A stretch of DNA of 48,313 nt, the filler included, from Jimgerdemannia flammicorona (taxonomy: Eukaryota), in the NCBI GenBank assembly GCA_003990765.1. It is 2 parts of 2 records of this genome, joined end to end, with 100 filler letters (N's around TTAATTAATTAA, not from the genome) between each part and the next. Parts side by side here need not be neighbours in the genome. Positions count along the whole stretch, not along the records: positions 24,213 to 48,313 come from RBNJ01001021.1; 1 more part is not named here. One strand, written 5' to 3'. A program made the translations under genes and the position numbers. Of the stretch, positions 23,317-48,313 are shown piece by piece (position 1 is the first letter of the stretch; every line of letters starts with the position of its first letter). The notes beneath the pieces were generated by a model. It worked only from the letters and a program-made list of their open reading frames with translations. It did not search any database and was not told the origin of the DNA.

Positions 23317-24112
23317 TGTGGCATTCGGTTTGTACATATCTCTAGTTGCTTCTTGCACGGCTCAATGTGCCACTTGGTGAAGTGCGCGATGTATAACTGA
23401 AGGCATTGGTGATGTTTGCGGGTCGATGGTCATGTGATCGGTTATTTGATTCATGTGGTAATTGTTAATAGCAGGAGATCGTTTGATTGTTCAATGATGG
23501 TGGCTCAATTGTTTAGTGGATAAGGGTGGCGAATAACTTGGCGGCAAACTTGGCGACGGTCTTGATGGTCTTGCTCTTTATGCAGTCAATTAAAGCAGTC
23601 TGTGGCGCAGTAGGTCAGGAAAAAAAATGGAGGTTGACAGCTCGCTCATCCGTCTTGACTTGTTAACTTGGAAGGTTCCTGGCAGTCGTTCGAGTCTTTG
23701 GCAGCAGTCTTGTATCCTTTGGCTGGGTATCCTTAGGTTTCCAGGTCTTGAATCTCGAATGGCGGTCGAATGCGCGGTCTGAATGGTGGTCTGAATGTGC
23801 AGTCCAAATGCGCGGCGGTCATGGTCTAGAATCCTTGGCTGGGTCTCCTTGGGTTTCTGGGTCTTGAATCCTTGGCTGGGTCTTGGGTCTCGAATTGGCG
23901 GTCGAATGCGTGGTCCAAATGGCGGCAGTCGGGTAACATTTTCTTTCTTTCCATGGCAAGAGAAAATTCTTTAACTCAAACCTCAAGCGATCGTTGCTCT
24001 AGTTATCTTGTTCTCAGAATTTATCTGGTCTCTTGGAGGCAGTGGTTTCTTTGTAATCCTTTTTACTTTTAAACACAAACTGACTGAGGCTTTATTCACT
24101 CTAAGAATATGG
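23317..24112 (-). mobile_element. Probable LTR of a third, less decayed family (cut by the gap)
   Basis: Ends ...GCCACA on the minus strand at 23317 and carries AGAGTGAATAAA (minus, 24091-24102). Internal short duplications at 23715-23930. CpGs retained. Confidence 0.55.
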
Positions 24113-24212
24113 NNNNNNNNNNNNNNNNNNNNNNNNNNNNNNNNNNNNNNNNNNNNTTAATTAATTAANNNNNNNNNNNNNNNNNNNNNNNNNNNNNNNN
24201 NNNNNNNNNNNN
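24113..24212. other. Artificial assembly linker (44 N + TTAATTAATTAA + 44 N)
   Basis: Exactly 100 bp; the core gives stops in all six frames. Confidence 0.95.
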
Positions 24213-27200
24213 AAAAAAAAAAGGGAAGGAAAATCCAAAAGGAGCTGCTGGCAAAGCTGGGTGAGAGTAGAGCCGGTGGAGGCACAGGGGAGGGGGATGC
24301 AAGATTGCAGATGAGCACCTAGGCTGTGGGAGGCGAAAGGGCCCATAGTGGGGCTCAGGCTGAATTGGAGGAGGAGAGAGAAGACAGTATAGAGGCAGAT
24401 GCAGAAATGGGCAAAGGGGCATACCCTCAGTATAGTGTCCCAGATGGAGCTGAGGGGGAGGAGAAACTTCTGGATGTGCTAGATGAGGAGTGGGATGAGT
24501 CAGTGAGGAGGAGTACTCTGGTGGACCCAGAGGTAGATGGGGGGCAAATCATCCAGGGTACAGCAGAGGCAGTGGATGAGGAGAAATGGATGTGGAAGAC
24601 CCTAGAAGGGGTAGTGGCAGAGGAGCTAGGGGGAGAGGATTTCAGAGTTATGGAAGAGAGGAATTGGGAGGAAATCCTACAAGGGGAGAAGGTGCCAAGG
24701 AAGATGAGGAATGAGATCCTGGCTGTCCTCCTAGAGTCGGTTGAATATCAAGTCAATAATCAGAGAGAGGAGGAACTTAGGGAGATTGTGAGTGACCAGG
24801 TACTATACTTATGGAACTTGAGGAAGAGACTGGAGAAGTGATATACAGTCTGTATAAACTACTGGTCAGAAATAGAGATAGTGGATAGGGTGGAATGTCA
24901 GGAAATCTTGGAGGCACTGGATGCTCAGGCTAATGCAGAGGGTGACTTGGAAGCTGAATGGCGCTTGGATCTGGCTGGGGATGAGATGAGTATAGAATAC
25001 TAGACTGGGGTCTCAATTGCAACATTCTTTCAATATGAACAGTACAATTAGAATATTCTCTTTGAACATAAATGGGTTATGGGGGGCAGCTAGGAGGAAG
25101 CATATATTTGGATGGCTAAAGGGACTGGATGCAGACCTCTTTTTGTTGCAGGATATTTATTATGAGGCAGATGTAGATTTATAGGATTGGACTAAGGAAT
25201 GGGGGGGGGGTGGTAGTATGGAGGGGACAGGTGGGTATTCTTATTCGGAAAGGGATGGGGGACATTGGGGACATTGGACATTGGGAGTCTTGGGTGGTAT
25301 GAGGAGTGTGGAAGAGGCCTGGATGGGGCTTGTTGACAGTTGGGTCTTGCTACTACCCAGCTGATAGAGGGGAGAGAGTGAATTGGATTCGTGGGTTAAA
25401 AGAGTCTGGTGTCTTGGGTGAGGTTGGGTTGGACTGTCTGGGGGGTGACTTCAACATGGTATAGGATAAGGAGATGGACAGAACAGATAGAGGAAGTGGC
25501 ATGTGGAGTGAGAGTGGTGGGCTGGGTGACTGATTGGAGACAGAGAGATTGAGTTCTTTAGTGGACTTAAGAAGACAGTTTTGGGACAATTGGAAGATAT
25601 ACACTCACTGGGCAGCAGGGCTGGGCTCTAGAATTGACTGAGTTTTGACAGTAGAGTGCTGGGGAGCAGATATCTGGATGGCACTGGAGGTAGTTTGGTG
25701 TCCATGGTCTGATCACTGGGGGCTGCTAGAAGGGGGGAGGTTTGGGGGAAGTGAGGATGGGCCTGGATATTGGTGACTGAATTCTTCCTTATTGGAGGAT
25801 GGTGTTTTGTAGGAGGATTGGGAAAAGGAGGTTATTGAGAATATTGAAAGGTGGTGGGAACAGGGCTTGGGGATTGGGGACTGCTAGAGGAGACTGAAGG
25901 CAAATGCTCAGGAGTATTGGAGAGAAGCAGGGAAAGAAAGGTGTGCTCAATGATGGTGGTGGGTGCTGTGGGCCTTACAGCATCTGGCAGCACTCATGGG
26001 GAGATAGACAGGTGTGCTGGAGGATGGGGAGGTGACCAACTGGTATATTGGGAGGATCCATAAGAAGGTGAAGGAGCTTAAAGGAGTGTTACAAAGAGAG
26101 GAGGAAGTGAGGCTGCAGGAGATGGTAGCCCGGCTGCAGTGGCAGGGACTTGAGGAGGGGGAGAGGCCTACTAGGTTTTTATCATGGTTGTTACAAGCAT
26201 GATGAACAAAGCAGTGGTGGGAGGGAGTCCTGGATATGAATGGTGAGCTGGTGGTGGGAACTCTGGTGATTCTGGGTATACTGTGAAATCATTGGGAGAG
26301 TCTATAGAGTAAGAAGGAAGGTGGGGTGGATGCCTTGGACATTGAAAGGCAGCTGGGGGATTGGCACCCAAGCCCTGCAATAGGTCTAGGGTCTTTGGGG
26401 GACCCAGTGAGTGGAGAGGAAATCTGCAAGATTGTGGCCTCGGCGAGTAAGAGGACAGCTCTGGGGGAGGATGGACTTCTCTGGGATTTCTGGAAAAAGA
26501 TAGCTAGGGTGAGTGAGGTACTGGAAGAAATGACCACTATGTATAGTGAGGTTCTTCAGTCTGGTACTTGGATAGGGGGCCAATGCCTAGGGCTAGTCTC
26601 CTTACTCTATAAGAATAAGAGGAGGCAGGAAGATTGGAAGAACTGGCAGCTGATCATGCTACTCGATATGGACTGCAAACTGGTGATGAAGATCTTGGTG
26701 ATGAGGCTGCAAGGAATTGCTCAGCAAGTGCTGGGGGTGGAGCAGCATGGATTTGTCAGTGGCCAGTTGATTCAAGATGGGACAGCTTGGGTATATGGTA
26801 TGATTAAAGGTGCTCAGGCTATAGGGGTGGATGGGTGGTTGGTATTTCTGGATCAGGAGAAGGCATATGATAGAGTGCAGAGGATCTGGCTAGAGAGAGT
26901 GCTGAAATGGATTGGTATTTCCCTGGAGTTCTGAGGATCATTGATTGGCCTCTTGGAGAACAGTCAGGCTGCATTGGTCATCAATAGCCACAGGGGTGTG
27001 GCTTTTCCCCTAGGTCGTGGGGTGCCACAAGGTGACCCCTTGTCACCAATATTGTATGCCCTCTCCCTGGAGCCTCTACTGGACAGGATTCAGTATCGAA
27101 TCAGAGGTTTGGATATTCTAGGGATAAATTGGAAGGTGGGGGCCTTTGCTGATGATATGGTGATTGGACTGGGCTCCTTGGTGGATATGGGGGAGTTACA

Positions 27201-28781
27201 GCATTCTGTGGAATGGTATGAGAGAGGATCTGGTGCTAAACTAAACTGGCACAAATGTGAGACTCTGGTGCTGGGTGCTGGAATTATTAGTGATGATATA
27301 ATTGAGATAGTGGTGCCAGCTAGTGAACCAGTGCATTATTTGGAGATCTACTTCTCAGTGTTTGGATCTCTTCTTCCCTGTGCATAGTGAAGCCGACAAC
27401 TTCTGGAGTGGGGAAATGTTCTGCTGCGATGGGGAGGTTGGCATATGTCCTTGGCCAGAAGGGTGATGGTACTGAATGTATATTAGATACTGAAGCTGTA
27501 GTATGTGGGGTATCATTTGGATTTCCTGACCTGAGTGGTTCAGGGGCTATTGAAGATGGTGAGATCATGGATCTGGAGAGGGCAGTGAAGTCAGGTGGGT
27601 TGGGAGGTACTCACCCTGCCAGTGGAGAGAGGTGGGCTGGGCTTAGTGGACTTTACTAAGCAGCTTCATTGTTTGAGAGCTTGGTGGTTGAGGAGGGCAA
27701 GTGAGCTGAGGGGTCAGGAGTGGGTGCCACTTATACAGAGGGTGTGGGAGGTTTGGTATTCCTCTTGTGGAGACTCTGGTGACCTGCTTGTGATGGTGGC
27801 CATGGATGGGGACAGGAGGATGAGGTTCACAGACTTCTGGTGGGGGGTGGTAGATAGTGCTAAGAAAATTGAACTTCGGTGGTGAGGTGATGAAGCAGAG
27901 GAGGATTGGGGACTGCAGATGTGATGGTGGGACAGGCTTTTACTGGGTGGTGTTCTGGTGGAGGATTTCCAGCTTGGAGAGGGTATGGAGTACCTGTAGG
28001 GCTTGAGGGGAGACCTGTGGCCCGAAGCCTGGCAGAGGGTTGGAATTGGTGAGGAGTGGGATTGGAATGGACTCTGGCTTTGGAGCAAGCAGATGAGGCA
28101 GTGGCTGTCCCCCAAGTTCTAGGTGGTGTGGTGGTGAGTCCTATGGTGGAATGTGATGTTGAACTATCAGTCTGGGCACTTGGTGGATGGTGGCATATTT
28201 GAGTGTGAGGAATGTTTCAATATTGGTCAGGAGGGTAGAATGGTACAAATGTCTGAACATTGGCTTAGTGAGTGTGAGGTTTTGGAGGAGTTTTGGAGAT
28301 ATATCATGGACCAGTTAGGGCTGTGTGCCCTGGAGGGGGGGGAAGGGGGGAGATGGGGAGAGCTCCACCAAAGACTGGTCGGTAGAGTTGGGGATGAATG
28401 GCTGACCCTTGGCTAGGCTCTGGTCATGTGGATTGGGTTAGTTGGGCATTGGGTACATGTATTTGAGAAGGGTCAGCAGGTGGGGGTTGGGGACAAGGTG
28501 ACACATTGGGAATGATTATTACTGGACATTTTGAATGGCTGGTAGTGAGGGTGGGGGCTGGGTAAGGGGAATTACAGGGGTTTGGTACAGTGTATCTCCT
28601 GGAAGAGTGGTGGGAGGATTCAGGTGGTGGGTGACTGGGTTGTACTCAGGCAGGGGGAGGTTGAGGGAGTAGGGATAGGTCCACAGAGTATTGGTTGAGG
28701 GTTTGGAGTGACATTGTATTGTTAGAATTATAGATGGTAGTAATAAAGGGCAGTCCAAGTGACTTAAAAAAAAAAAAAAAA
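24213..28781 (+). mobile_element. Degenerate L1/Tx1-like LINE (ORF1 tail + ORF2 APE-RT-CCHC) with poly(A)
   Basis: APE motifs LLQD, GGDFN, SRID, SDH; GPGYW*LNSSLL; EGERPTRF. RT motifs QHGF, FLDQEKAYDRV, RGVPQGDPLSP, FADD; then GGLGL and C-terminal CEEC..EHWLSEC. AATAAA at 28742-28747 and A-tail at 28766-28781. Confidence 0.93.
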
Positions 28782-30174
28782 GATATCTAATATCAGCTCT
28801 TTTAGAACTAAACTGATTGTCTTATATTGTATAGTAAATTTATCTCATTATTATAGAGATGATCAGATCAATACAATTAGTTTGTGTAGCTTAGAAATAA
28901 TACTCAGAGTTCCTTCACTTCTAGATATTTTATCTATACATAAGATACTTCTGAATAGTAAGATTTAGTATATGGGTCTGATAATATATATAGCAGTTTT
29001 CTATACTGAAGGCTATATTTTCCTATTGAAGGCTTTGCTAAATTTTAGAAAAATATTGAATTATTTGTAGCATTATCTATCATAATGGTCAAAATCTGTA
29101 CTTGAAATTTTCAGTTAGCAAATTTATATAAAAATAAATAACTATTAAAATCTGGTTTGTTTTAAGACCTCTCTCAAAATGCCAACCAGATAGCAAGCCC
29201 CCTCTTTTTATCTTGATTATAATTCCAAGCTCCCAAATATAACTAATAAAATATCTGTAATGTTTTCTTCAGAATGAGAATCAGTAAGTTTAATAAAGTC
29301 AAGAGTAAGAGATTTAAGTTGCTAATTAAGATCAATCTAATAACTAGTAATACCCAGAAATAAAATTGTATTAAAGAATATTTATATATCAATTATAAAT
29401 GAAATTCTACCTACTAAATTCTATTTATTGAATGTGAGATTAAATTGATAAACTATATATATATATATTATTTAGCTTGCAATAGTTATAGTATTGCTCT
29501 TATTTATTTATTTTATCTAAAGTGTCTAGTAAAGATTATTATACTCCTTCCTATAGGCCTCCAGAATATCTTTGTGAATAGTATCAATATTTAGCAAATA
29601 TAAATCATACTTGAGGAGGTTAAAGATACTATACAATTAGTTATTCTTAATAGTTATGAATAGTTGGTCTATATATACAATTTAGCAAATGAGTCAATTT
29701 TGAAATTCTGCTAAAGAATATGATTAAATATTTTTAATTAAATAGAGTTATTAATATAGAAATAGTTAAGTAATTAGATAAATATACTTACCATCGCTTG
29801 GATATTGATTTTATTTATTTTTGTATTCTTTTTAATTTTGTTAGAGTATTTTGTCTTTTATATATAATATATATTTAAAGTTGAACTACTAAGTATTTTG
29901 AACTTCTAGCTATATAGTATAAAGAGATTGGTAGAAATAATATAATATATATATCAAATAAAAACATCAGTTATATTATAAATATATCTTCTTTTTTAAT
30001 TTTTTACCTATAATAATTATAAATAATATTATCTTCAGTCTTAGTATAATATTATCAGATTTTGGAATGAGAATTATATAGAAGGTATAGAGCTATCAAG
30101 AATATTTAACTTGAAATATTATCAGTACTATGAATTATTGAAGACTGATCTATTGACATATATGTTTATATATT

Positions 30175-30208
<34 letters not shown>

Positions 30209-30597
30209 TATATTTATATATTATATATATAGACATATTGAATATATGAGTCATGTAGAGAATTTGGATTAGAGAATTTAAATTAAAGAATTCAGATTAG
30301 ATGATTCAAATTAAATAATTCAAATTGAATAATTCAGATTAACTAATTTAGATTAAATAATTCAGATTGAATAATTCAGATTGAGTAATTTGAATTGAGT
30401 AATTTAGATTGAGTAATTCAGATTAAGTAGTTCAGATTGAGTAATTTGAATAGAGTAATTTGGATAGAGTAATTTAGATAGAGTGATTCAGATTAATCTA
30501 AGTTAATTCAGATTGTTTCAGATTTGAGATTTGGATCAAACTATCATATAATGAATTGAATTAAGATTTGATTTGAATTAACTTATTTAAAGTACTA
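28782..30597 (-). mobile_element. 5' part of a highly decayed hAT DNA transposon
   Basis: Minus strand ~29420-29255 reads GRISFIIDI*IFFNTILFLGITSY*IDLN*QLKSLTLDFIKLTDSHSEENI, matching the hAT transposase SFTTDxW..FLGIT.HWID..HSGENI region. Terminus TAGTACTT at 30597, with subterminal repeats. Confidence 0.8.
30255..30500. repeat. 14-bp subterminal tandem repeat (GATTGAGTAATTCA, ~17 copies)
   Basis: Clear 14-bp periodicity at 30351-30495. An adjacent (TA)n-rich tract lies at ~30165-30232. Confidence 0.9.
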
Positions 30598-33194
30598 CTG
30601 GCAGATAATAATAAGTATTTGAATATCTTAAGATCTATTTGATCCAAGTATCTATCTTGAAAAGATCTGACTGATCTCAAAAGTTTATTCTATAAATAGA
30701 TATAAGCTCAATTGAACTAAGAGCAGTCCTTGTATAAAAGAAAAATAAAGTCAAATATGTGGTTATATATCTCAGTTAAAAAACTCATAAAGGAGAAAGA
30801 GAATATGAATTCTATAAGCTAGAGTATCTTATAGTTATTTAGACTATAGAAAAGTTTCACTACTATCTTATTAGAAGATACTTTACTATTCTGACTAATT
30901 ATTCAGCTCTTACCTAGTTGTTGACCACTAGTCAATCTAAAGGAATATTTATTAAATAGATTATAAAACTATAAGCTCATAATACAATCATTATATACTA
31001 TTTAGAAAGAATCAATACTAATATAAATATACTTGTATAGATACTCTGAAAGACTTATAATTAGTAAAACCAAAATGAATAAGAAACTTTACTATAGAAT
31101 TATCACCTATCTGAAATAGTAAAAGATGTCTCAATACTTAAAAGAATAGATATAAATAATTATCAACAAAAGCTAGAAATAATTCAAAACTGATAGAGAA
31201 ATACTAAAGAAAGAAAAACTACTAGTTATATCAGAATATAAGAAGAAATAAATAATGAAATCAATATATAAACTTAGCCATTTAAGAGAAATAAATACCT
31301 ATGACAAAGTAAGAAGAATAATATAGTAGTCTGAAATAGAGAAAGATATCAGATGATTTGTTAAGATCTGTGACAAATATTAGAAACAGAAGTAAGATTA
31401 GTAAAACCAGATACCAGAATCAGCAGATATAAAATTAGTATTATTTATCTATATTATAATAAATATAATTAGCCTACTACTCTTGATATTAACTAATAAC
31501 TAATATATTATTATTATTATAGACCTCTTTATAAAATAAATAGAAGCAGAATCCCTTAAAGAAGCTAATGTATAGTTAATTGCTAATTTTTTCTATAGAA
31601 AAATCATCTGTTAATTTAAGATACTAAAGTAAGTAACAATAGATAGAAGAATAGAATTTATGAATCAGCTCTTTGAGGTTCTATATAAGAAGTATAAAAT
31701 TTAGCATATAGACTAAAAAGATCAATAATATATTCAAAAGTATTATTATTAAGATCTGTAATAATTATAAGAATTAGAACTACTATTTATTAATTGCATT
31801 ATCTGTTCTCTAGAATATATAATTACAAAATACTCATTTCATCTCTTGAGAATTACTATTTAGAGAAGAAAGATCTGAAAGAACTCTATTATTCAATAGA
31901 GATACAATATGGAAATATATAAATACTGAGATATAAAGATTGTATTAAATAAGAAAAAAGGCTAAAGATTATATAATTAAGATATAAATATTATAATAGA
32001 ATAATATAGAGATGATTTACAAATCCTTGGATTATTAAGATATATAGGAGAAAAAGTCCTAGTATATTAGAATATAGTGAAAACTTCATAATTATAAAAA
32101 CTAAAGCCTAAGTGAGAAGGATCTTACCTTGTGTAAAATATAAAAAAAACTATTTTTTGACTATAAAAACTATTAGATATAATCATCTTTACTATTATCT
32201 ATTAAAATCAACTTAAGAAGTATTATGACTAATCAACAAAGTATTACTCTGGTTCTCAAAATTACAAATATTATATAGTGAGCTATAAAAAGACAATAGT
32301 GTTCCACTGAGCTACCAATTATAGAGAAATTCTTTAATAATATTTAAAGTATTATACAGACCCATCTATCATAAATTTCATACTTTTAAAGTCTACCAAT
32401 ATCATGCTGAGTTTTAAAAGTACTTCAAGTTAGAGAAATTACTAAATAAAAGAAATATAACTAAAGAAGAATAGATTGTAGAGTGTCAGATATCCTATAC
32501 CCAGATCACTATAGCCAAGCAGATTTATAAATTATTTAAAAATAATAAGCAAGCTCTAGTCTATTTTCAAGAAGTAGTTCCAGAAGATTTCTAATAGGTA
32601 AAAAAAAAAACATTATTGGGAGATAAAATTAAGTAGATTATATAGTATAAGAATATATAATTGGTCAAAGTATAAGAGTTTGAATAAGATAATTCAGAGA
32701 TCAAATTACTTATTTAGAAAAAAGTTATAATAGTTGATCCAAATTAGAAATAATAATTAGAGAATAGATATTTGATTATGATATTTGAATCTGATTCCTA
32801 ATATAATATAGCATTATAGTTTAGTAGTCACTCAATCTCTCAGTTATATAATTTATACTATATATTATATGAAAAGCACAGATCTTAACTATATAGATTT
32901 TACAGATATATAAATCTCTCAACTGTACAAAATGACTTATAAAAAAAGAAATCATAGCTTAATCACTATATAGCTAGTAAACTTGTATAAATATTTTTAG
33001 TATCTAGAATAAATAAATAAATCTCAGATCAAAATAGTTTAAACAAAGAGACAAGAAACTAGTAAGCCTGCAAGCAGATATACTTTAAACTCATCCACCC
33101 CTATATCTAAGAACTCTGAGAAGTCAAAGAAGATTAAGTATTCAAGATAAAGAAATCTGCCACACTTCTGCTAGTATATATCCACTATATTACA
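30598..33194 (+). mobile_element. 3' half of a second family-1 Gypsy copy (RNase H-INT-ORF3-LTR), very AT-mutated
   Basis: Colinear with 5803-8419. 3' LTR at 32726-33194 ends TATTACA. Begins exactly at the hAT terminus. Confidence 0.9.
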
Positions 33195-33446
33195 TTATTT
33201 ATAAAAGTAAGAAAATTAATATATATAATAATCTTAATTTTATCATATAAATATATAATACTTTATATAGTTTTAATATAGAAGAGATTTAGTTTAATCA
33301 GTTATAAATTCTTTTACAAAGAATAATCTAGTGTGTGAACCCATCATGGCTGATGCTGTTGTGAGAATACAAATAGAAGATGAACAAACAGATCATTAGC
33401 TAATTTCCTTACACAGACACACAATGCTCACACAGTTTTGACATAC

Positions 33447-36400
33447 TTTAGAGATTCAGTTCGTCGTGTTCTGCTTCAGAGACTCAGCTAGGAGGCGCTC
33501 TCCTTCCTTGCTAATATTATTCACTTTAAAATGAACAAGGGATGAAAGAACACGCATAGATGATTGGCTTGATCCCATCATACAGTCACATACAATGCTT
33601 CACACAATACTGACATACCAAAGAGATCGGTCAAGGTCGTGTTGTGCCTCAGAGACTCGGCTAGGGCACGTGCTCCCTCTTCGCCAATATAATTTCCTTT
33701 AAAATGAACAGGAGATGGACGGACCATTAGCTTGATCCCATCATGCAGCCATACACAATGCTTCACACAGTTCCAACATACCATAGAGATCTAGCCCGGT
33801 CAAGGTCGTGTTCTGCTTCAGAGACTCAGCTAGGGCGCATATACCCTCCTTGTGAATTTCATTCCCTTTAAAATGAACAGGGGATGGGCAGTTCATTAAC
33901 TTAATTATGTCACACAGCCGCGCACAATGCTCTACACAGTTCTGACATACTTTTGAGATCCAGCTCGGTCAAAGTCGTGTTCTGCTTCAGATACTCAGCT
34001 AGGGCGCATGCCCCCTCCTCGCCAATATTATTATCTTTAAAATGAACAGGAAATGAGCGAACATGCGCTCGATTCCATCACACAGCCGCACACAGTTCCG
34101 ACATACCAGAGAGATTCAGCTTAGTCAAGGTCGTGTTCTGCTTCAAAGACTCAACTAGGGCGTGTGCTCCCTCCTTGCCAATATTATTCACTTTAAAATG
34201 AACAGGAAATGAGGGAACACGCACAGATCGTTAGATTGAACACAATGCTTCACACAGTTCCAACATACAAGAAAGATTCAGCTCGGCCAAGGTCGTGTTC
34301 TGCTTCAGAAACTCGGCTAGGGTGCATGCCCCTTCCCCGCCAATACGATTCCCTTTAAAATAAACAAGACAGGAGCGAACACGCTCAGATCAGCTTGATT
34401 CCATCACGCAGCCGTACACAATGCTTCACACAGTTCCGACGTACAAGAGATATTCAACTCGGTCATGGCCGTGTTCTGCTTTAAAGACTCGGCTAGGGTG
34501 CGTGCTCCCTCCTTGCCAAAATAATTCTCTTTAAAATGAATATGAGATGAGCGAACTCGCACCGATCGTTAGCTTGATTCCATCACGCAGCCGCACACAA
34601 TGCTTCCCACAGTTCCAACATACTTTCGAGATCAAGCTTGGTCAAGGTCGTGTTCTGCTTCAGGGACTCGGCTAGGGCGCATGCCCCCTCCTCGCCAATA
34701 TTATTCCCTTTAAAACGAACAGGGGATGAGAAAACACGATTACATTACGCAGTCGTACACAATGCTTCATACAGTTCCGACATACTTCTGAGATTCAGCT
34801 CGGTCAAGGTCATATTCTGCTTCAGAGACTCAGCTAGGGCGCGTGCCCCCTCCTTGACAATCTCATTCTCTTTAAAGCGAATGCGCGAACACGAACATGT
34901 CGTTAGCTTGACTCCACCATGCAGCCGTAAACAATGCTTCACACAGTTCCGACATACCAGATAAATTAAGCTCGGTCAAGGTCGTATTCTGCTTCAGGGA
35001 CTCGGCTAGGGCGCGTGCTCCCTCCTCGTTAATGTTATTCGCTTTAAAGCGAACAGGGATGAGTGAATATGCACAGATCGTTAGATTGATTATATCACAC
35101 AGCCGCACACAATGTTTCACACAGTTCCGACATACCTTCGAGGTTCAGCTTGGTCAAGGTCGTGTTCTGCTTCAGAGACTCGGCTAGGGCGCGTGACCCC
35201 TCCTCGCCAAAATTATTATCTTTAAAATAAACAAGGTGTGAGCAGACATGCACAGATTGTTGGCTTGATTCCATCACGCAGCCGCATACAATGCTTCACA
35301 CAGTTACGACATACTTCCGAGATTCAGCTCGGTCAAGGTCGTGTTCTGCTTCAGAGACTCGGCTAAGGCGCGTGCCCCCTCTTCGCCAATATTATTTTCT
35401 TTAAAATGAACAGGGGAGAGTAGACACGCATATATCGTTAGGTTGATTCCATCATCAACCGCGCACAATGCCTCACACAGTTCCGACATACTTTCGAAAT
35501 TCAGCTCGGCCAAGGTCGTGTTCTGCTTCAGAGACTCGGCTAGGGCGTATGCTCCCTCCTTGCCAATAATATTCCCTTTAAAATGAACAGGGGACGAGCG
35601 AATGAGCACTGATCGTAAGTTTGATTAAATCACACAGCCGCACACAATGCTTCACACAGTTACGACATACTTCCGAGATCCAGGTTGTTCAAAGTTGTGT
35701 TCTGCTTCAGAGACTCGGCTAAGGCGCGTGCCCCCTCCTCGCCAATATTATTCCCTTTAAAATGAGCAGGGGATGAGCGGACAAACACACATATTCCATC
35801 GTGCAGCCACACACAATGCTTCATACAGTTCCAACATACAAGAGAGATTTAGCTTGGTCAAGGTTGTATTCTGCTTCAGAGTCTCGGCTAGGGCGCATGC
35901 CTCCTTCTCGCCAATCTTATTATCTTTAAAATGAACAGGGGATGAACAACCCATTATGCAGTCACACACAATATTTCACACAGTTCCGCCATACCAGAGA
36001 GATTCAGCTTGGTCAGGGTCGCGTTCTGCTTCAGAGATCCGGCTAGGGTGCTTGTTTCCTCCTCGCCAATATTATTATCTTTAAAATGAACAGGGGATGA
36101 GAAAATACACATATCGTTAGTCTGATTACATCATGCAGCCGCACACAATGCTTCACACAGTTCCGACATACCAGAGAGGTTCAGCTTAGTCAAAGTGGTG
36201 TTCTGCTTCAGAGACTCGGCTAGGGCGCGTGCCATCTCATCGCCAATATTATTTCCTTTAAAACGAACAGGGGATGAGCGAACATGCACTGGTCATTAGT
36301 TTGATTCCATCACGCAGCCGCACACAATGCTTCACACAGGTCCGACATACTTCTGAGATCCAGCTTGGTCAAGGTCGTGTTCTGCTTCAGAGATTCGACT

Positions 36401-38352
36401 AGGGCGCGTGCCCCCTCCTTGCCAATCTCATTCTCTTAAAACAACAGGGAATGAGCGAACACGCACTGATCGTTAGTTTGATTCCACCACACAATGCTTC
36501 ATACAATTCCGACATACCAGAGAGATTCAGCTCCGTCAATGTCGTGTTCTGCTTCAGAGAGACGGCCAGGGCGCATGCCCCCTCCTCGCCAATATTATTC
36601 TCTTTAAAACGAACAGGGGATGAGCGAACACGCACTGATCGTTAGTTTAATTCCATCATGCACCGTACACAATGCTTCACACGGTTCTGACATACCAGAG
36701 AGATTCAGCTTGGCCAAGGTCGTGTTCTGCTTCAGAGACTCAGCTAGGGCGAGTATCATCTCTTCGACAATGTGATTCCCTTTAAAACGAGCAGGAAATG
36801 AGCGAACACGCACTGATCGTTAGTTTGATTCCATCACGCAGCCACACACAATACTTCACACAGTCCCGACATACAAGAAAGGTTCAACTCAGTCAAGGCC
36901 GTGTTCTGCTTCAAAGATTCGGCTAGGGCGAGTACCCCCTCCTTGTTAATGTTATTCACTTTAAAATGAACAGGGGATGAGCGAACACGCACTGAATCGT
37001 TGGTTTGATTCCATTATGCAGTCACACACAATGCTTCACATAGTTCCGACATACCTCTGAGATTCAGCTCGGTCAAGGTCGTGTTCTGCTTCAGAGACTC
37101 GGCTAGGGCGCATGCCCCCTCATCTTTAATATTATTCCCTTAAAACGAACAGGGAATGAGCGAACACGCAATGATCGTTAGTTTGATTCCATCACGTAGC
37201 CGTACACAATGTTTCACACAGTTCCGACATACCAGAGAGATTCAGCTCGGTCAATGTCATGTTCTGCTTCAGAGATTCGGCTAGGGCGCGTGCCCCCTCC
37301 TCGCCAATGTTATTATCTTTAAAATGAACAGGGGATGACCAAACACAAACTGATCGTTAGCTCAATTCTACCATGCAGCCGCACACAATGCTTCACACAG
37401 TTGCAACAAACATTCGAGATTCAACTTGGTCAAGGTGGTGTTCTGCTTCAGAACCACGGCTAGGGCACGTCCTCCCTCCTCACCAATGCTGTTCACTTTA
37501 AAACGAACAAGGGATAAGCGAAGTTAGCTTGATTTTACCATGCAGCCGCACACTATGCTTCACACAATCTTGACATACAGCAGAAACTCAGCTCGGTCAA
37601 GGTCGTGTTCTGCTTCAGAGATTCGGCTAGGGCACATCCCCCCTCCTTGCCAATTTCATTCGCTTTAAAACGAACAGGGGATAGTGAACACGCACAGATC
37701 GTTAGTTTGATTTCACCGTGCAGCCGCGCGCAATGATTCATACAGTTTCGACAAACCTTCGATATTCAGCTCGGTCAAGGTCGTGTTCTGCTTCAGAGAC
37801 TCGGCTAGGGAGTGTGCCCCCTCCTCGCCAATATCATTGTCTTTAAAACGAACAGGGGGTGAGCGAACACGCACTGATCATTAGTTTGATTTCATCACGC
37901 AGCCGTATACAATGCTTCCAGTTCCGACATACGTCTGAGATTTAGCTGGGTCAAGGCCGTGTTCTGCTTCAGAGACTCGGCTAGGGCGCGTGCTCCCTCC
38001 TCGCCAATATTATTCGCTTTAAAATGAACAGGGGATGAGCGAAAGCGCACAGAACATTAGCTTCGACGCTTCACACAGTTCCGACATACATCTGAGATTC
38101 AGCTTGGTCAAAGTCGTGTTCCGCTTCAGAGACTCGGCTAGGGTGCGTGCCCCCTCCTTGCCAATACTATTCACTTTAAAATGAACAGGGGATGAGCGAA
38201 CACACACAGAATATTAGCTTGATTCCATCATGCAGCCACACACAATGTTTCAGACAGTTCCGACATACCAGAGAGATTCAGCTCGGTCAAGGTCATGTTC
38301 TGCTTCAGAGATATGGCTAGGGCGCGTGTTCCATTCTCGCCAATCTTATTAC
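33447..38352 (-). repeat. Tandem array of 29 exon+intron units (155-180 bp period)
   Basis: Each unit is an 84-nt LRR exon plus a homologous 71-96-nt intron (GTATGTCGGAACTGTGTGAAGCATTGTGTG...CTAAC...CCTGTTCATTTTAAAG). Confidence 0.97.
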
Positions 38353-40682
38353 CTTTAAAACAAAGAGGATATGAACAAACACACACAGGTTGTTAGCTTG
38401 ATTCCATCACGCAGCCACACACAATGCTTCACACAGATCTAACATACTAGAGAGATTCAGCTCCGTTAAGGTCTTGTTCTGCGTCAGAGACTCGGCAAAG
38501 ATTCCGGCCTCCTCGTCGTCAAAGTCGTTCTCTGAAGTTGAACAGTGAATGAGGAACGCGCGCATATTGCTGAGCATGATTCTATCAGACAGCTCTGACA
38601 TACCACTAATATTCAGTTTCGTCAAGGTCCTGTTCTGCTTCAGATACTCAGCTAATGTACGCGTGAACAGAATTCCAATGCCGTTTTCTGATATAATCAT
38701 CAAAAAAAAAAAAAAAAAAAAAAAAAAAGTGAGCATAGCAAGAGAATACACCCGCTCCAACGTACCAGCCTCAAACAATATTTGATAGAAATGTTGGCGC
38801 ACTGGTGAGATCGAGCTTGATCACGTTTGTGTTATGCTCCAGAAATTGAACGAGAATGCTCGCTTCTCTATCGTTAATGTTCCATCCTGAACATGACAGG
38901 AGATCAGTAGATAGAAATATATAACAATCTTAATTTCCTATCAACAATAGTTTACATATTTCTGGCATACCAAATAGATTCAGCTCATGCGAGGTCGTGT
39001 ACTGCTCGAGACGTTCGGCTAGAATGCCTGCCCCTCCGCCGCCGGCTGTATTTTCTTAAGATAAATGGAGAGTGATTAGTTTCGACCAAATTATTGGATG
39101 GTACGGCTGCAAAACAATGGTTCGCACAATTCTGACATACGGGTTGTGTTCTGTTGCTGAGGTTCAGCGAAGTCGCTGGGCTCACCCAAGCCGGCGCTTA
39201 TCTCTGAGTGATTAGAAACTATAAACTGGTAAGCAATTGTGGTAGGCCAACCCTGCAGTTGTATCCCTCATCGGCGGAAAATGTGAATACTGAACCATGT
39301 AACCATATCGCTACGCACCTGAATTTGGCTGACGACTAAGACTTTCAAGCACCGCTCGCGAGTGATGTTCTGTAATTTTCTGGAGACGTTCGCTTGTGTA
39401 GAATTTGCTTCCGCCATGGAAGGCGCTCACTCCATCGAATAATTCGAAATCGTCGTTGGTACTGCTATCTTCCAGCTCCTGCTGATGTATGACCCGTCGA
39501 TTATCAATGAACGATTGCGTCTCCGGCGAAAATGGTACCCTCGCCATTGCAAGTGCTTTTAAAACTTGACTTTCCGCGTTTTGTGGCAAGGAAGGAGGAA
39601 TGTAGGCTAAACCAGCTGCACATTCGATCAAATGATCGTAGACTTCACGGGCGCTCGGTCGCCGGTTAGGGTCGAGGTGCCAGCAACTCCGAATGATATC
39701 ATTGTATGCTGTGGGCGCACCAGGGATCAGCTCCTCGCGAAGGCCATCTGGTCCCCTGGCGACAGCATACATTGCGTCGCCATGGGGTGGGACGCCGACG
39801 ACAAGCTGCCACAGCAGAGTTCCCAAGCAGTACACGTCCGATTTCTGTGTATACGGCTTGTTCTCGAACATCTCTGGAGGGAGGTATTCAAGCCGGCCAT
39901 AGACGCCTTCTTCGGGATTTTCTTGTTCTACAGAACGGCTAAGTCCAACATCGATCAAGAGTGTGGTGTGTGACTTGTGGAATACTACGTTGCCTGCGTG
40001 GAGATCCTGATGGCAGAAGCCCATATCGTGAAGACTGGCCAAGCGGCTGGCAAGTTTTATGGCATATGTCAAAGCGGTGTACCAATTACCATCTTGTTCG
40101 CAAGGCTGCTTTTCGAGAGTGCCAATGTCAGCCAATTGCATGATCATCAGATACTCTTTGGTAATGGGGTGTTTTGACAAAGCAACAATTTTCATCGTAG
40201 GGGGATTGCTGGTGTCATTTCCGCAGTAACTCAAATAAATATTCAGGACTAACTGTGTCGGTGGGATAAAGAAACAGCAAATTTACTGGAAATGTAAGTT
40301 TCCTGGAAAATAATTGTATGTATATACACCAACGAGAACTCACTTCTTCGGCCATTGACAATTTCAATTCTTTAGCGGCCACCTTGTAAGTAGTGTTAGA
40401 TACCGAAACGTCTGCCCGGTAAACTTTTGCAAACCCGCCTTGGGCAAGCAGCTCCAAGGGTTTGAGTTCCCAGGGCTGAAGCCAGGTAAGGTATGGCTCC
40501 AGCGGTGACACACCCAAGGCGACGAGGCAGGCACGAAGTTGCAGGCTTTCATTCAATTGATTGTTGAATTTTTGGGAATTTCGATTCTTCCATACCAAGA
40601 TTTCTGTTTGGTGGGCTCTGTTTAGTTGGTCCCAGGGCTTGATTCGGCCCAGCAAGTCGTTCGGGCGGGTTGTGGCGGACAT
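33456..40682 (-). CDS. TKL-like protein kinase fused to ~33 RI-type leucine-rich repeats (36 predicted exons, ~1361 aa)
   Basis: Exons 40682-40344, 40252-39319 and 39203(or 39218)-39141. Then 84-nt exons starting at 39054, 38886, 38687, 38531, 38352, 38173, 38016, 37840, 37662, 37495, 37316, 37138, 36958, 36779, 36601, 36434, 36255, 36078, 35923, 35754, 35575, 35398, 35219, 35041, 34869, 34707, 34528, 34352, 34190, 34034 and 33865. Then a 78-nt exon 33696-33619 and a last exon from 33523 to TGA at 33458-33456. All introns are GT-AG and the frame is open throughout. Kinase motifs: QGGFAKV, VAAK, HQDLHAGN, DVG, YLPPE, SDVY, CW..DP..RP. LRR consensus: NNIGEEGARALAESLKQNTTLTELNLSx. Confidence 0.85.
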
Positions 40683-43149
40683 GATGTTTGATTTCTGAGC
40701 GATTACTTTCTTTCTGTGATTTTATGTGGCGATCAAATCACATGCAGACCTCAGCCTCAATCTCCTGACGTTCTTTCTTGAGTAATCACGTTCTCCTGAC
40801 GAGCTGAGGCATTTTAGGATGGCCAAATCGAGATCGCGAGTGTTAGACGCACATCGTTTATTATTAGGACAATGTCCTTTGGGGATTGGGTATACCACGC
40901 GAAAATCATATTAACATCCTTGTTTGTTTCTTCTCATACTCGAGGACCGCACAAAACCGCCGACCACCGAAAATGCTAACTGGCTCACCATCCTGGACAG
41001 CACCCGAACTACAATCAGCACAACAACCCGCTAAAATTTCCGACGCCAAAGACCCCAATTCCGACGTTTGGCCGATGGATCATCCGTCGATGGGTAATGA
41101 GGCGGCTTGCAGGTGGGGTCGAGCCGGGTCGGTCGCTAGGAGCCGGTTTTGTTCGCGAGATGTCGATCCTCTCCAAGGGTCCTACGGCTGCTGTTGTGCG
41201 ACATTACCCGTTTATTAGGAAAACGATTTACTGGCCATAAGTCCTACATAATTATATAATAGTATTGCAGTAAACCTTCCTTCGCTCCGCCAAAGATCAC
41301 GATTGCCTCGTGTATAATGTCCCTTGGTTGTTGCCCGAGCGTGATCATCAATCACGTTCGGACATTACCCATCTTTAAGCAAGACATTCGGACATTACCC
41401 ATCTTTAGCATTGGGAATGGTCACGTGGGGTTCTGCACGTAACGCGGCAACTCTTACATATTTCATAGTATTAATTAGGGAAACTTGTATAAGTGGATGT
41501 TTGCTGATGGTGTGTATCGTCTTGTGCACAGAACGAGTCGTGGCGTAACCACGTGATCACGCGCATCGAAGGTTTTCTCCCGAATAAAGGCAAATATTGG
41601 TATATATACACTACGAATTAGATTCCAACAAGACGGATTGGCTCCAACAGGCCGATAAAAGCAAAAATCCTGAAATGTCCGGTCAGGCGATCAAATTAGG
41701 TTTTGCCGAGTCGTTCGAAATACTATCTGCACCCCTCACATCCAACCAGTACTCCAAGATATCTGGATTAGACATGCAGTCCTCCGTGGCAGATGATGAA
41801 AATAAAAACACCATCCTCATATTTATTATTAAAAAAAAAATGGACAACCAGTGATAACATTGTTTCAACCGTGACGCAGTCCATCTGTGACCTCTTCTGG
41901 TAACACCCTACTACTATCCAATGCTTACCTATCTCGGCGCCTCTGGCCTCGAATCACATCCTTGAACGCTGTCAGTGACCGCGAACACTGCGGTACAATG
42001 CTCGCGGATAGGACTTGTGAAAGTGGAAATCTCGGAGAATATTTCAGGTCAACGATCAATGCGTTTAGCTCCTCGTACCACCACATTCCTGCTGCTTTGT
42101 ACTCCCTCTTCGAATCGCGCTGCGCTTGAGCTTCAGCACGTAAGCAGCGCCACAGTGCGAAAATTGGCTAGTTCATGGTTGCGTGAAGTGGGTCATTTTT
42201 GAGTCCGAGGACCATGCCGATTGCCCGCCGTTCGTATTAATCATTTGTCACTACAGCAGAGTCTTTAGAGCGGAGAAAATGGAATCCCAGCAAAGGAATC
42301 TTAACGGAAGGGGTCTCATTGATGGGGCCACCATATGATGATTTCCAAACCTCTGCCCTAATTTGCGTTTGCTTTCGTCATAATGTTTCAGACCTGACGT
42401 AATTTAACCGCCCTCTGCCTCATTCTCTCTTATTGTTTTCCCACATCTTAACAGACTCGGTCGACAAACGTTGGATATGGTTTCTCTTGTGAATTACAAT
42501 TAAGCGTGTACTTGGCGTGGTGTGAAGTTTCCTTTTACGAGGCGCGAGTGCGCCTGTCTTGGTTGCCCCTTGAGCAAGGGCGAAACCGGTCTAGGTCATA
42601 GTTACACTAGTTACACTCCATAGCTTTGTATCTGTAATATATACGATTTTTTAAAAATATAAAATATTGAAAGCAACCCAAGGGGAAAAGAGATTGTTAC
42701 GTCGTCCTGAACGTGTCACGCAACTCTGTCACGCTTCCAACCTAATGCACCTATTCTCCGAGCTCTCCACACACCCGTGCCACCGCATCACACACACGGA
42801 CTCGCCAGGGATCGAGGTACCTTACGACCGCAATGATTGGCCGCAACTGCCAATCCGGACTGCGCCAGAACGTGAGGTACGACATTGCCGAGGTACGTGC
42901 GGGACACGGTAGGGGTGGACGGGAGTCGTATGCTTTTGAGGGGGAGGTACATCGAAGTGGAGCGTTGTTCCCTGTTCGGCCGTTGGAAAAGTAGGTGGGT
43001 TTACCAGGTGGCCGAAGTTGAGGCTTGGCATGTATAGGTGGCCTCCCCGCCACTCCTGCCATTCCAGCACACCGCACTCACCCCCCCTTTACAGAATAAC
43101 GAATCCAATAGCTACCCTGTCTACTACGGTTATCAGCCTCGGCCAGCTG

Positions 43150-43452
43150 TATGCCATGCTATGAACAAGAGGCACCTCGAGGTTGTGAACTTGCTCTTGG
43201 CCAACTCCAAAGCGGACGCCAACGTCAGGCAAAAAGAAGAATTACGCCGCTTCTCTTCGGGCATGTTGATATTGTGAGGTTACTCTTGGCCGACTCCAGG
43301 GCGGCCGAAAAAGGATGGATGGACGGCGCTTCACTTGGTTGCGCAGAATGGGCACGTCAAGGTTGTGAGGTTTTTGGCCGATTCCAAGGCGGACGCCAAC
43401 GCCAAGACAAAAGAAAAGGAGCGACTTCGCTGCGCAGAACGGGCACGTTGAT
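43150..43452 (+). pseudogene. Ankyrin-repeat fragment, frameshifted
   Basis: HAMNKRHLEVVNLLLANSKADAN / GHVDIVRLLLADS / WTALHLVAQNGHVKVVRFLADSKADANAK / AQNGH, in shifting frames. Confidence 0.8.
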
Positions 43453-43588
43453 CATCAAAAATTTATTGTATAAATGAATATACTAAACTAATTATTATCA
43501 GGCGACCTCGGAAGCGTGGAGGTTGTGCGAAGGGGATAATGAATGATAACTCTCTCTCCCAACTTCGTTGTGCCACAGGCGTACATGA

Positions 43589-45751
<2,163 letters not shown>

Positions 45752-46795
45752 TGCAAGAGAGGGAATGGGTGGCTTGGTGATCCTGTCACATGTTAAATTT
45801 CTCAAACATACACTATACTTAAATGGACAATATGGGCTGTTCTCACCTTAAATCTGTAGACTTAGTCTCAAACGGGTAAGGCGACGACGGGGACCTCTGT
45901 CGCGTCCACCCCCCCTGGATACGGCGGATCGATCCCTCATCCGCTCCCTAGTACCACAGTAAGCACTTAAGTGCCCACATCGGGAGAACTACTGGCCTGA
46001 GATCAAGCGTCCATCCCAAGGCACACAAAAATGAAAATGAACGAGCGATACCGTATATCACCAAGCGTCGAGCCTCTCGGATATCATATGGCAAGAAGTC
46101 GGACGGCAAGTTGTAGGGAATCAAGCACGGAACACACATTCACGGGTTGCGGGTAAAGCCTGACAGAAAAAACCAAATGGCCGTTTATGCGGGAATACGT
46201 ACCTGTCGTGTGGAAGGTGTTCGTTGAATCAATTGCCCCAGCCCGTCGAAGTGATAGAATCCACGTATCATATTTAACGGATGGAACATTCTTGGGGCAA
46301 CCGTCATTCTCGTCCTTCTATGCTAAACCAACCGCGGACGCAGTGCTCGATTTCCCAGGGGCCATGGTGAACCCACGCAACGAAAGGCAGTCGCCGGAAC
46401 AAAGAGGCTTGCGCCGTGGGATCGGAATGGCCTCCAAACGTTACGCCGGGTTTCGCGTTCCCGAAGTTCTGTTTTAAACGCATATTTGTATGTTCGGTCC
46501 CGTCACAAATAATGCCACAATGTGCAACGAGGGGGGCCGAGACACGTCGGGGGGTGGGATAAACCGTCTCACGGATGGGCCTTTTTGACGGCGATGGCGG
46601 CCACTTTTAAAATGTTAAAATGTTAAAATGTTACCTCTGGTGGCTTAGTATGACTCAAAAACAGGAAGTAACTTCAATTGTGTCCCTTGTTGTGTGGGGC
46701 CGGACCCTTGATTTCCAGTCACTGGAAAAGGCCAATGTTTGTTTCACACACGGTTTCTTCCGTGCTCAGCCTCTACGACCAAACACTCCACCGCC

Positions 46796-46803
46796 TATAA
46801 AAA
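46796..46803 (+). promoter_or_regulatory. TATA box of the CipC-like gene
   Basis: TATAAAAA ~90 bp upstream of ATG 46888, followed by a C/A-rich leader. Confidence 0.6.
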
Positions 46804-46887
46804 CCCCGTCGGATCGTAACCCCAACAACCCAACAACCTCATCTACCTCTACTTTCTTACTCCGTACTACACAAGAACCTCTCAATC

Positions 46888-47291
46888 ATGTCTCATGTGT
46901 CTCAAGAATCTCATGATCAGGTCTTTGGCACAGAAGCCCACCAAGTGATTATCCCCCGTAACTTTTTCACACTTATGATTATGATGATTCTCAAAATCTA
47001 AAGCTAATTCAACAACCTTCATTCCTTCCTCCATAGCACAAGGCCAAATGGTCTCACGAGCTGATTGGTGGTGCCGCCGCTTTCGAGGCCATGAAGGCGT
47101 ATGAGGACCACCAGGCGAAAAACGGCAAGCCCGACGACCATGCCCTGGCCAAGGAAATCTTTGCCGGTTTGGCTGGTGCCGCCATCGACCGTCTTGTCGA
47201 AACCAAGGGCCTCGACGCCATCGAAGCTGCTAAGGCCAAGCACCACGCCAAGAAGCAGACTGATAGCATCTACAACGAGAAGTTCGCGTAA
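46888..47291 (+). CDS. cipC: CipC-like (DUF3759) small protein, 2 exons, 103 aa
   Basis: Exons 46888-46944 and 47037-47291. HKAKWSHELIGGAAAFEAMKAYEDHQAKNGKP..HALAKEIFAGLAGAAIDRLVETKGLD is the family signature. Confidence 0.88.
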
Positions 47292-48313
47292 CTGGTCGTT
47301 GGATCGCAAAGAATCAATCTATCCATATTGTATATTACACATTCACGCTATGTCAATGAAACGAGCTCCGTTCAATTGCTACCTGTCTACTTGATACTCT
47401 CTTGTGATTAGAGACTTGGTATGGTGATATGAAATGGTGGATGATCGAGAGTCACGTCGGGTTACTGGGATGGCGATATCAAAGGAGAATATAAAACGCT
47501 ATCATGAAGCCAGTGCACTACTATTGAAACCCACTTGAATTTCATGTGTATGTCGCTCTACCACCATAGAATTATTGTGCCAAAGGCGTTTGGTTGAATC
47601 GAGCTAATCTAGATAAGCAAAATCGCTCTTTGTTGCATCTACGTTATTCTACGTCATCAAAAAAAGGGCTTGCACTCAGGATGTCGGCTCTATTCAATGG
47701 GCTCTTCGGAGATGCCGGTGCACGAGCCGAAGGCAAATTGAGGGGATATAATTACACATGCACATGTACATCTGGTCATATACTGATCGTCATAGTTGGC
47801 TTTACCAACAGGCCTCATTTTACGAAGGCACCTTCTTCTTTTCCTATTCTGATTGACTTTTTTACACCCTTTTCTCTTTTGGGAACCTCGTGTACGGGTA
47901 AGTGCATGTGGTGATGGGGACTTGCATTCAAGGTGGGTCTTATATTTAACGAGTTTACGGTAGTCGGAGAAGATGAAGGTGTAATTCGGGGAAGAGGTGT
48001 GGCCTTCCAACACCATAACATATTGCCCCGATTACAATCGCGCAAGCCGATTGTCCATGTGTGCGTTGAAAATCAATGATATCAATGGCGCATTTGAGCA
48101 ATCAGTTATTACGCATGAAAAATATGACCATCACCTCATTGGGTGATCGCCACAACAAAGATGTTCACTGGGAAAGATGGAGCCAAATAAATATAGTTTC
48201 TTTGTGCTCATGTATGAGGGATCGATGACGAATCCTACCTCGAGAAAAACTTGTTTGCATTTTTTTTTTTTTTAAACATGCAGCAGTTGTCAATAGCTGA
48301 GACAAACTTTGGA

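Follow-up and report, generated by a model that had tools for sequence, protein, structure and literature searches.

A predicted kinase-coupled leucine-rich repeat protein of Jimgerdemannia flammicorona encoded by amplified one-repeat exons, with an intron inside the most variable codon of the repeat

Arrays in which each leucine-rich repeat (LRR) has an exon of its own have been described in several lineages. In the vertebrate NOD/NLRC and NLRP genes, according to the available text of two reports, a 28-aa LRR of the ribonuclease inhibitor (RI) type occupies each frame-preserving exon of 84 nt (Hoss et al., 2019, PMC6642158; Istomin and Godzik, 2009, PMC2747839). In the ciliate Tetrahymena, 90-bp LRR exons with phase-2 introns form arrays in which a ‘junction’ amino acid is supplied by two neighbouring exons, and unequal crossing-over is proposed as the route of their clonal expansion (Xiong et al., 2019, PMC6564038). 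In the ROCO genes of the brown alga Ectocarpus a 24-aa LRR is carried by each 72-nt exon: the extracts available describe exon shuffling, positive selection on the exposed concave-face residues of LxxLxLxxN and, as a speculation, somatic diversification (Zambounis et al., 2012, PMC3341825). Other lineages thus already provide published examples of arrays with one LRR per exon, of selection on these positions and of a junction amino acid. In fungi, LRR receptors are reported in the source, as far as available, to be almost absent (Soanes and Talbot, 2010, PMC2939053). The fungal NOD-like receptors (NLRs) carry WD, ANK or TPR repeats of >85% internal identity on NACHT or NB-ARC domains; the accessible text states that ‘no LRR motifs were found’ and proposes concerted evolution or repeat shuffling as the generator of diversity (Dyrka et al., 2014, PMC4986451). 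Here we describe a 36-exon gene on the minus strand, from 40682 to 33456, of a 48,313-nt stretch of DNA of the fungus Jimgerdemannia flammicorona (assembly GCA_003990765.1; this whole stretch is termed the window below). Its product is predicted to couple a protein kinase to 34 LRRs of the RI type, one per exon, and its LRR introns interrupt the codon of the most variable residue of the repeat.

The gene is intact: the spliced model of the kinase-LRR coding region (33456-40682) is open from its ATG (40682-40680) to a TGA (33458-33456) over 1361 codons, with a product of 1361 aa. Exon 1 (40344-40682) encodes the N-terminal region, including the glycine-rich loop and VAAK lysine of the kinase, and exon 2 (39319-40252) the remaining protein kinase domain (HQDLHAGN, DVG, PPE) and a linker. 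The LRR exons, which were located by anchoring on the conserved repeat core, begin with a truncated, degenerate exon of 63 nt with phase 1 on both sides (39141-39203) and four old, diverged exons of 84 nt and phase 1 (38971-39054, 38803-38886, 38604-38687 and 38448-38531). These are followed by a homogeneous tandem array (33782-38352) of 27 modules of ~179 bp, each an 84-nt exon with an intron of 71-96 nt, which Tandem Repeats Finder (TRF) reports as a 179-bp repeat from about 34240 to 38496. In coding order the array exons lie at 38269-38352, 38090-38173, 37933-38016, 37757-37840, 37579-37662, 37412-37495 and 37233-37316 (1-7); 37055-37138, 36875-36958, 36696-36779, 36518-36601, 36351-36434, 36172-36255 and 35995-36078 (8-14); 35840-35923, 35671-35754, 35492-35575, 35315-35398, 35136-35219, 34958-35041 and 34786-34869 (15-21); and 34624-34707, 34445-34528, 34269-34352, 34107-34190, 33951-34034 and 33782-33865 (22-27), all on the minus strand. 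A penultimate exon of 78 nt (33619-33696) has an in-frame 6-nt deletion, and the last repeat unit (33447-33523), of 77 nt, has a 7-nt deletion that shifts the frame into the TGA at 33456-33458; the former donor site of this unit follows at 33446. Thus, 31 of the 34 LRR exons are exactly 84 nt, and all except the terminal unit are a multiple of three in length.

All LRR introns are of phase 1 and lie at one fixed position of the repeat. Every intron starts with GT and ends with AG, and the 30 introns that separate the 31 exons between 38687 and 33447 are 71-96 nt long, with GTATGT at the start in 26 of 30, TTTAAAG at the end in 27 of 30 and a CTRAY box ~40 nt from the 3′ end in 21 of 30; 28 of the 30 would, if retained, introduce a stop or shift the frame. 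The array introns are homologous to each other (mean pairwise distance 0.17) and unrelated to those of the older upstream LRR exons. An Rfam scan of 33000-41000 gave no match, and hence no known RNA in the conserved introns. In the 115-nt intron between the exons 38803-38886 and 38604-38687, 27 consecutive A residues of the plus strand, T on the coding strand, occupy 38702-38728, and repeats around 38689-38737 were left out when contigs were placed on the window.

Two public runs, presumed to be RNA, contain 28% of the sampled words of 33300-40800, and joins were read from their k-mer contigs; the figures given here and below refer to the 15 best-supported of 56 joints. In contigs of both runs the exon-to-exon joins coincide exactly with the predicted borders (CT..AC on the plus strand), with 11 introns taken out among these joints, eight of them within the homogeneous array; provided that the runs are RNA, the gene is therefore spliced as modelled. 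Contig pieces end exactly at 40344 in both runs and start at 39319, at the borders of exons 1 and 2; others span 38604-38687 and 38445-38532, and the joint 38349|38445 takes out the next intron. The joints 33695|33781 and 33523|33619 delimit the penultimate exon, and the latter, in X1 only, leads into the last unit. None of these 15 joints involves the 63-nt LRR exon 39141-39203. As an observation at the 3′ end of the gene, an X1 contig has a loose end of 255 nt that departs from the window at 33456, exactly at the deletion and stop of the last unit; its continuation is LRR-like by eye, and it may be an allele or paralogue without the truncation.

The repeat unit has the consensus RNNIGEEGARALAESLKQNTTLTELNLS. 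Its positions are numbered along LxxLxLxxNxL, where x7 precedes the junction of two exons, x8 is the junction residue and x10 follows the Asn; the variability statistics were computed on the 27 canonical 84-nt exons. An earlier note, made from this DNA by eye, had described the helix part of the repeat as nearly invariant and the variation as concentrated at LxLx[x]Nx, inclusive of the residues before the junction and after the Asn. Both descriptions hold: ALAESLKQNTTL is identical in 22-27 of 27 units at each position, and the junction residue x8 is the most variable position (13 residue types, 3.56 bits), followed by x10 (9 types, 2.34 bits), x7 (7 types, 2.23 bits) and then a helix-start position (1.94 bits). 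At the nucleotide level the last 4 nt of the exon and the first 2 nt of the next form, in every unit, an island of diversity (0.52-0.72 at exon positions 81-84 and 1-2 in the per-position diversity table); an example, comprising the x7 codon and the first junction nucleotide at an exon 3′ end, is 35135-35138 on the minus strand. The three bases of the unsplit x7 codon (0.64/0.67/0.56) match those of the split junction codon (0.69/0.715/0.52) in diversity.

This diversity stands far above every internal baseline: the mean is 0.18 in intron columns (95 columns, one of them >0.6), 0.20 at fourfold sites (n=14) and 0.17 at the third positions of the other 25 codons (n=25), and the nine hypervariable bases differ from 81 intron columns with p=5e-6 (Mann-Whitney). 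Nei-Gojobori non-synonymous divergence (dN) is 1.97 for x8, 1.89 for x7 and 0.61 for x10, against a dN of 0.141 and a synonymous divergence (dS) of 0.288 in the other 25 codons (dN/dS ~0.5) and an intron distance of 0.197. On a tree built without the three hypervariable codons, the Fitch steps per site are 15/13/8 in the junction codon, 10/12/7 in x7 and 8/4/10 in x10, against averages of 2.16 in introns and 2.24 at other third positions; recurrent change is seen at x3 (E/K) as well, in 10 steps. The excess over introns and fourfold sites indicates diversifying selection, not relaxed constraint: a six-base island of diversity lies between homogenised splice signals, so that selection must keep these codons different. 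The dN/dS and entropy check that had been proposed for the split-codon idea thus gave a several-fold excess of non-synonymous change over intron and synonymous divergence. A mutational process like repeat-induced point mutation (RIP) was considered as the cause and rejected: it would strike the introns too, which are spared, and every type of substitution is present.

The position of these sites in the fold was read from an AlphaFold model of the LRR region of the closest homologue, P0001 of Endogone sp., standing in for the window's own protein. P0001 has a kinase 57% identical to that of the window, the same kinase and LRR_6 architecture and ~10-12 repeats; its LRR model has a predicted local distance difference test (pLDDT) score of 77 and a predicted template modelling (TM) score, pTM, of 0.74, and TM values of 0.73-0.90 show its fold to match those of NOD2, RI, NLRP3 and an RI-like protein. 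In this model the β-strand runs from x3 to x7: x7 is the last residue of the concave strand, x8 the first of the loop, and x10 belongs to a short bridge that leads to the helix. The variable sites are, therefore, predicted to be neither buried core nor convex helix positions, which agrees with their earlier placement on the concave face and the adjoining loop. In RI itself, Tyr434, Asp435 and Tyr437 are experimentally confirmed hot spots, as given in the available text of the source (PMC9939524). Their spacing of i, i+1, i+3 is that of x7, x8 and x10. A count of 28 residues from the register of the structure would place these hot spots at x7, x8 and x10 themselves.

Exon 2 matches the protein kinase families PF07714 (7.2e-25) and PF00069 (4.4e-23), and the catalytic residues read from the sequence (VAAK, HQDLHAGN, DVG) place it among the eukaryotic protein kinases. 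The catalytic loop has HQD for HRD (Arg to Gln, i.e. non-RD), with DVG for DFG and PPE for APE; the corresponding catalytic-loop motif is HED in P0001 and HGN, without the catalytic Asp, in the Jimgerdemannia protein P0002. Non-RD kinases are associated with innate immune signalling. The repeats match LRR_6 (PF13516) with 1.1e-07, and a read-through of two exons scores 31.8 bits against a cut-off of 23.4 bits; the sequence matches in the PDB are RI, NOD2, RI-like and designed RI-like LRR proteins, with axonemal RI-like proteins, LRRC34 and DRC5 also among the best. There is no NACHT or NB-ARC: the Pfam matches of exon 2 are to kinase families alone, the reading frame of exon 1 has none, and the gene model has no space for another domain, so that the gene lacks a NOD domain. 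No Roc or COR match to Pfam was found that would make it a member of the ROCO/LRRK family. It likewise departs from the plant-type LRR receptor kinases, since the order is reversed (kinase N-terminal, LRRs C-terminal) and the LRRs are RI-type ones of 28 aa; inspection by eye showed no hydrophobic segment.

These features set the locus beside, and apart from, the systems named above. As in the vertebrate NOD/NLRC genes of the published extracts, the exon border is fixed in or at the β-strand region, exon skipping would preserve the fold and one 28-aa LRR is found per 84-nt frame-preserving exon. However, the NOD motif XLaaNaL...LaaL, as given in the text available, puts the border at x5 (PMC2747839), whereas here it falls inside the x8 codon, three residues later; the intron positions are, consequently, not identical. 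The partner here is a kinase and not NACHT, the host a fungus, and the introns are homologous copies. With the Tetrahymena arrays, some of which are fused to protein kinase domains according to the accessible text, the locus shares exons of equal length and a single non-zero intron phase, but the former are 90-bp, phase-2 and ciliate, and this one 84-bp, phase-1 and fungal; the junction residue of the ciliate is not described as hypervariable or as a contact in the part of the report available. The Ectocarpus ROCO genes differ in the position of the border, which the extracts place outside the hypervariable positions, in their ROC-COR GTPase partner and in their brown algal host. The repeats of the fungal NLRs are similar in being tandem, superstructure-forming and, in the accessible text, under positive selection at few binding-surface positions, a pattern also found here; in contrast, the present repeats are LRRs on a kinase with an intron per repeat, and one repeat per exon is not described in the available text on the NLRs. 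Nor do they reach the >85% identity over at least 100 aa by which Dyrka et al. (2014) delimit such repeats, the amino-acid identity among units being 70% on average (76% without the three hypervariable positions) and 89% at most. RI (1A4Y, 1DFJ) has the same LRR class by sequence and the same hot-spot spacing, but alternates 28- and 29-residue repeats and lacks a kinase. We found no description of such an LRR-kinase family from Endogonales or Mucoromycota in the open-access literature searched.

The split codon was the core of the earlier note, and its 29 junction residues, each from a codon made of the last nt of one exon and the first two of the next, are reproduced exactly; in coding order, between the exons 38269-38352 and 33447-33523, they read S,V,S,H,A,L,Y,G,V,W,E,E,R,D,D,W,R,K,N,A,E,R,K,W,L,D,R,G,V. 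As a correction, two units at the end of the array depart from the length of 84 nt, namely the 77-nt last unit and the 78-nt unit before it. That every intron splits the codon is true at all 29 junctions, but these are not independent events: the introns are homologous and the units copy one founder exon-intron module, so that ‘every intron’ amounts to one inherited arrangement and not to 29 coincidences. This arrangement is older than the amplification, being present in the five diverged upstream LRR exons, which have the intron position and phase of the array (four of 84 nt, one of 63 nt), and in the independent metagenome locus L001 (5677-6532; L002 is a duplicate), where six 84-nt phase-1 LRR exons have the intron at the same position with different introns. 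The L001 introns (63-78 nt) are of two alternating types, which results in a 303-bp higher-order repeat; an exon at 5839-5922 contains an in-frame TAG, the 3′ units are decaying and no kinase lies upstream. A tblastn search of the kinase against L001-L005 gave no match, and L001 is hence not an orthologue of like architecture. A 201-aa database protein, P0021, is the unspliced read-through of a third such LRR exon-intron array: its intron begins right after the x7 codon and one base, with an intron translation of SMSELSEF... against GMSELCEAL here.

Within the array itself no duplication history is readable. The similarity of units is independent of their distance in the array (rho -0.002), the similarity of exons is uncorrelated with that of the neighbouring introns (rho 0.01) and the unit tree is star-like, with one of 24 nodes at a support of at least 0.9. 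In a Sawyer-like run-length test for gene conversion the sum of squares was 91,488, compared with 61,389 +/- 5,300 in 300 column shuffles, a figure confounded by the clustering of the variable columns; the maximum run, confounded in the same way, was 33 against 32 (P=0.39).

Taken together, we consider it probable that the gene encodes a kinase-coupled recognition protein with RI-type LRRs, built from amplified one-repeat exons, with diversifying selection at rim positions and an intron position that is an inherited by-product. The product, from an Endogonales-like (Mucoromycota) fungus, would be receptor-like and cytosolic, with an N-terminal non-RD kinase of the Ser/Thr/Tyr type followed by a solenoid of 34 RI-type LRRs. 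Unequal crossing-over would have amplified one 179-bp module, an 84-nt exon plus a ~95-nt intron, in tandem into the recent 27-29 repeats; purifying selection would then have acted on the framework of the repeat, and diversifying selection would have separated x7, x8 and x10 and, more weakly, x3 and two helix-start positions. In the model, x7, x8 and x10 would sit at the C-terminal rim of the concave sheet, the place where RI-type LRRs hold their ligand, and from this we infer ligand binding and a receptor function. The intron would lie after the first base of the x8 codon because it did so in the founder module, and the strong intronic splice signals (GTATGT, CTRAY, TTTAAAG) may free the exon ends to vary. 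As a by-product, recombination from intron to intron, or an exon skip, would keep the frame and re-spell x8. Several points weigh against this explanation. The RNA nature of both runs is only guessed. The mean identity among repeats is no higher than the 70% given above and there are no recent duplicates, the best exon-body identity being 93%, so that the amplification is not very young. The structural mapping rests on the homologue P0001 and was made by secondary structure only. Gene conversion among the repeats could depress the ‘neutral’ baseline, and the dN/dS ratios >1 are, therefore, semi-quantitative, although the need for selection on the 6-nt island is unaffected by this.

A quite unlikely alternative is that the split codon is itself functional: alternative exon choice, or frequent and perhaps somatic unequal recombination, would make variants with a new contact residue at each junction, by the logic of lamprey variable lymphocyte receptors (VLRs) or of V(D)J. 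As array exons are all 84 nt and of phase 1-1, any skip is in frame; the junction residue is the most variable position; and 205 of the 435 forward non-adjacent joins would yield a residue unlike either parental junction, which bears out the arithmetic of the junctional diversity suggested before. Such new residues are, however, automatic for any phase-1 intron, and there is no evidence of their use by skipping or unequal crossing-over. The count of non-adjacent junctions that had been proposed as a check found one canonical GT..AG case, from exon 35136-35219 to 34107-34190 (35136|34190), which skips five exons and forms the codon GTG; it is present in one short contig per run at a depth like that of ordinary joints, and 0 of its 30 31-mers occur in the collinear mRNA, which makes it a real molecule. 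The shorter side of this join is 25 nt, and the molecule may represent an isoform but equally a shorter allele or a paralogue, three sources that k-mer contigs cannot separate. At three further joints the junction contains foreign letters, a sign of paralogues. Moreover, most contigs fit two places (438 of 603 and 544 of 759 placed contigs), from which many paralogous LRR transcripts must be present; these have the exon body in common and a different junction. Some non-adjacent joins would give stops (34 of 435, or 7.8%) and none does in the genomic order, just as had been noted, but this is no sign of avoidance, with 1.9 stops expected among 30 junctions and 8.8% of shuffles without any. Finally, the unsplit x7 codon is as diverse in nucleotides as the split one, and the intron position is a single inherited event. 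By analogy with lamprey VLR assembly one may go further and imagine an early-diverging fungus with a family of LRR-kinase receptors diversified, in the germline or somatically, by exon-intron modules with the homologous introns as joints for recombination or splicing; we regard this as a long shot. If it were true, each join would reshuffle repeats and re-spell a key contact residue, and 35136|34190 and the junction-variant transcripts would be its products.

It is likewise unlikely, if somewhat less so, that the protein is a housekeeping scaffold or inhibitor fitted to a single endogenous partner that is long and fixed, in the way that RI fits RNases and the axonemal RI-like proteins fit their own partner, with no arms race or non-self recognition involved. 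The best matches in the PDB, with axonemal RI-like, LRRC34 and DRC5 proteins besides RI, and the lack of a NOD domain are consistent with such a role, and the divergence of repeats within one gene cannot tell past directional from ongoing diversifying selection. Yet the amplification is recent, with homologous introns, in a transposon-rich region; paralogous transcripts are alike in the exon body and unlike at the junction; and the nearest homologue has only the ~10-12 repeats of P0001. These are traits of a fast-evolving receptor family rather than of a conserved scaffold, and the class of the kinase, non-RD, points the same way. It is extremely improbable that the variable sites are neutral or that the array represents pseudogene decay or an artefact of assembly: the damage to the last two units and the in-frame TAG of the related L001 exon are what decay might produce, but the variable sites lie three- to four-fold above introns and fourfold sites (0.18-0.20), the frame is open across 36 exons with a dN/dS of ~0.5 in the other 25 codons, and spliced contigs are found in two runs.

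Directly downstream of the gene, 29000-33300 is a very AT-rich spacer (GC ~22%) that contains tandem repeats of 14/28/42 bp (30256-30495) and an AT microsatellite (30158-30231). Beyond it, one strand of 24000-29000 is strongly G-rich, with a GC skew of +0.41 to +0.55 and a GC of up to 50%, and carries reverse-transcriptase open reading frames (ORFs; RVT_1) split by a frame break at 26308-26931 and 26935-27384, and runs of N lie at 24113-24156 and 24169-24212. Retrotransposon remnants with broken frames are found at 3454-7006 and 11829-15686, with Pfam matches to dUTPase at 4127-4675 (2.3e-13) and 15327-15683 and to an integrase core at 6698-7003 (5.5e-10); a dUTPase within a retroelement is unusual. 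Upstream of the gene, 41000-48313 has a GC of 45-50%, and neither a long open frame nor a Pfam match was obtained among the ORFs examined at 43112-43474, 44940-45359, 46885-47229 and 47022-47318.

The locus thus offers a fungal LRR protein, expressed if the two runs are RNA, that has evolved in the manner of a recognition receptor, with its modules amplified, their framework conserved and dN far above dS at a few predicted contact positions. Its LRR domain is tied to a non-RD kinase instead of a NOD domain. It represents a fourth, apparently independent lineage with one LRR per exon after the vertebrate NLRs, the brown algae and the ciliates, and in this fungal lineage the intron lies inside the codon of the most variable predicted contact residue. 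The gene is, hence, a candidate for asking whether early-diverging fungi associated with plants and bacteria sense their partners or enemies via LRRs.

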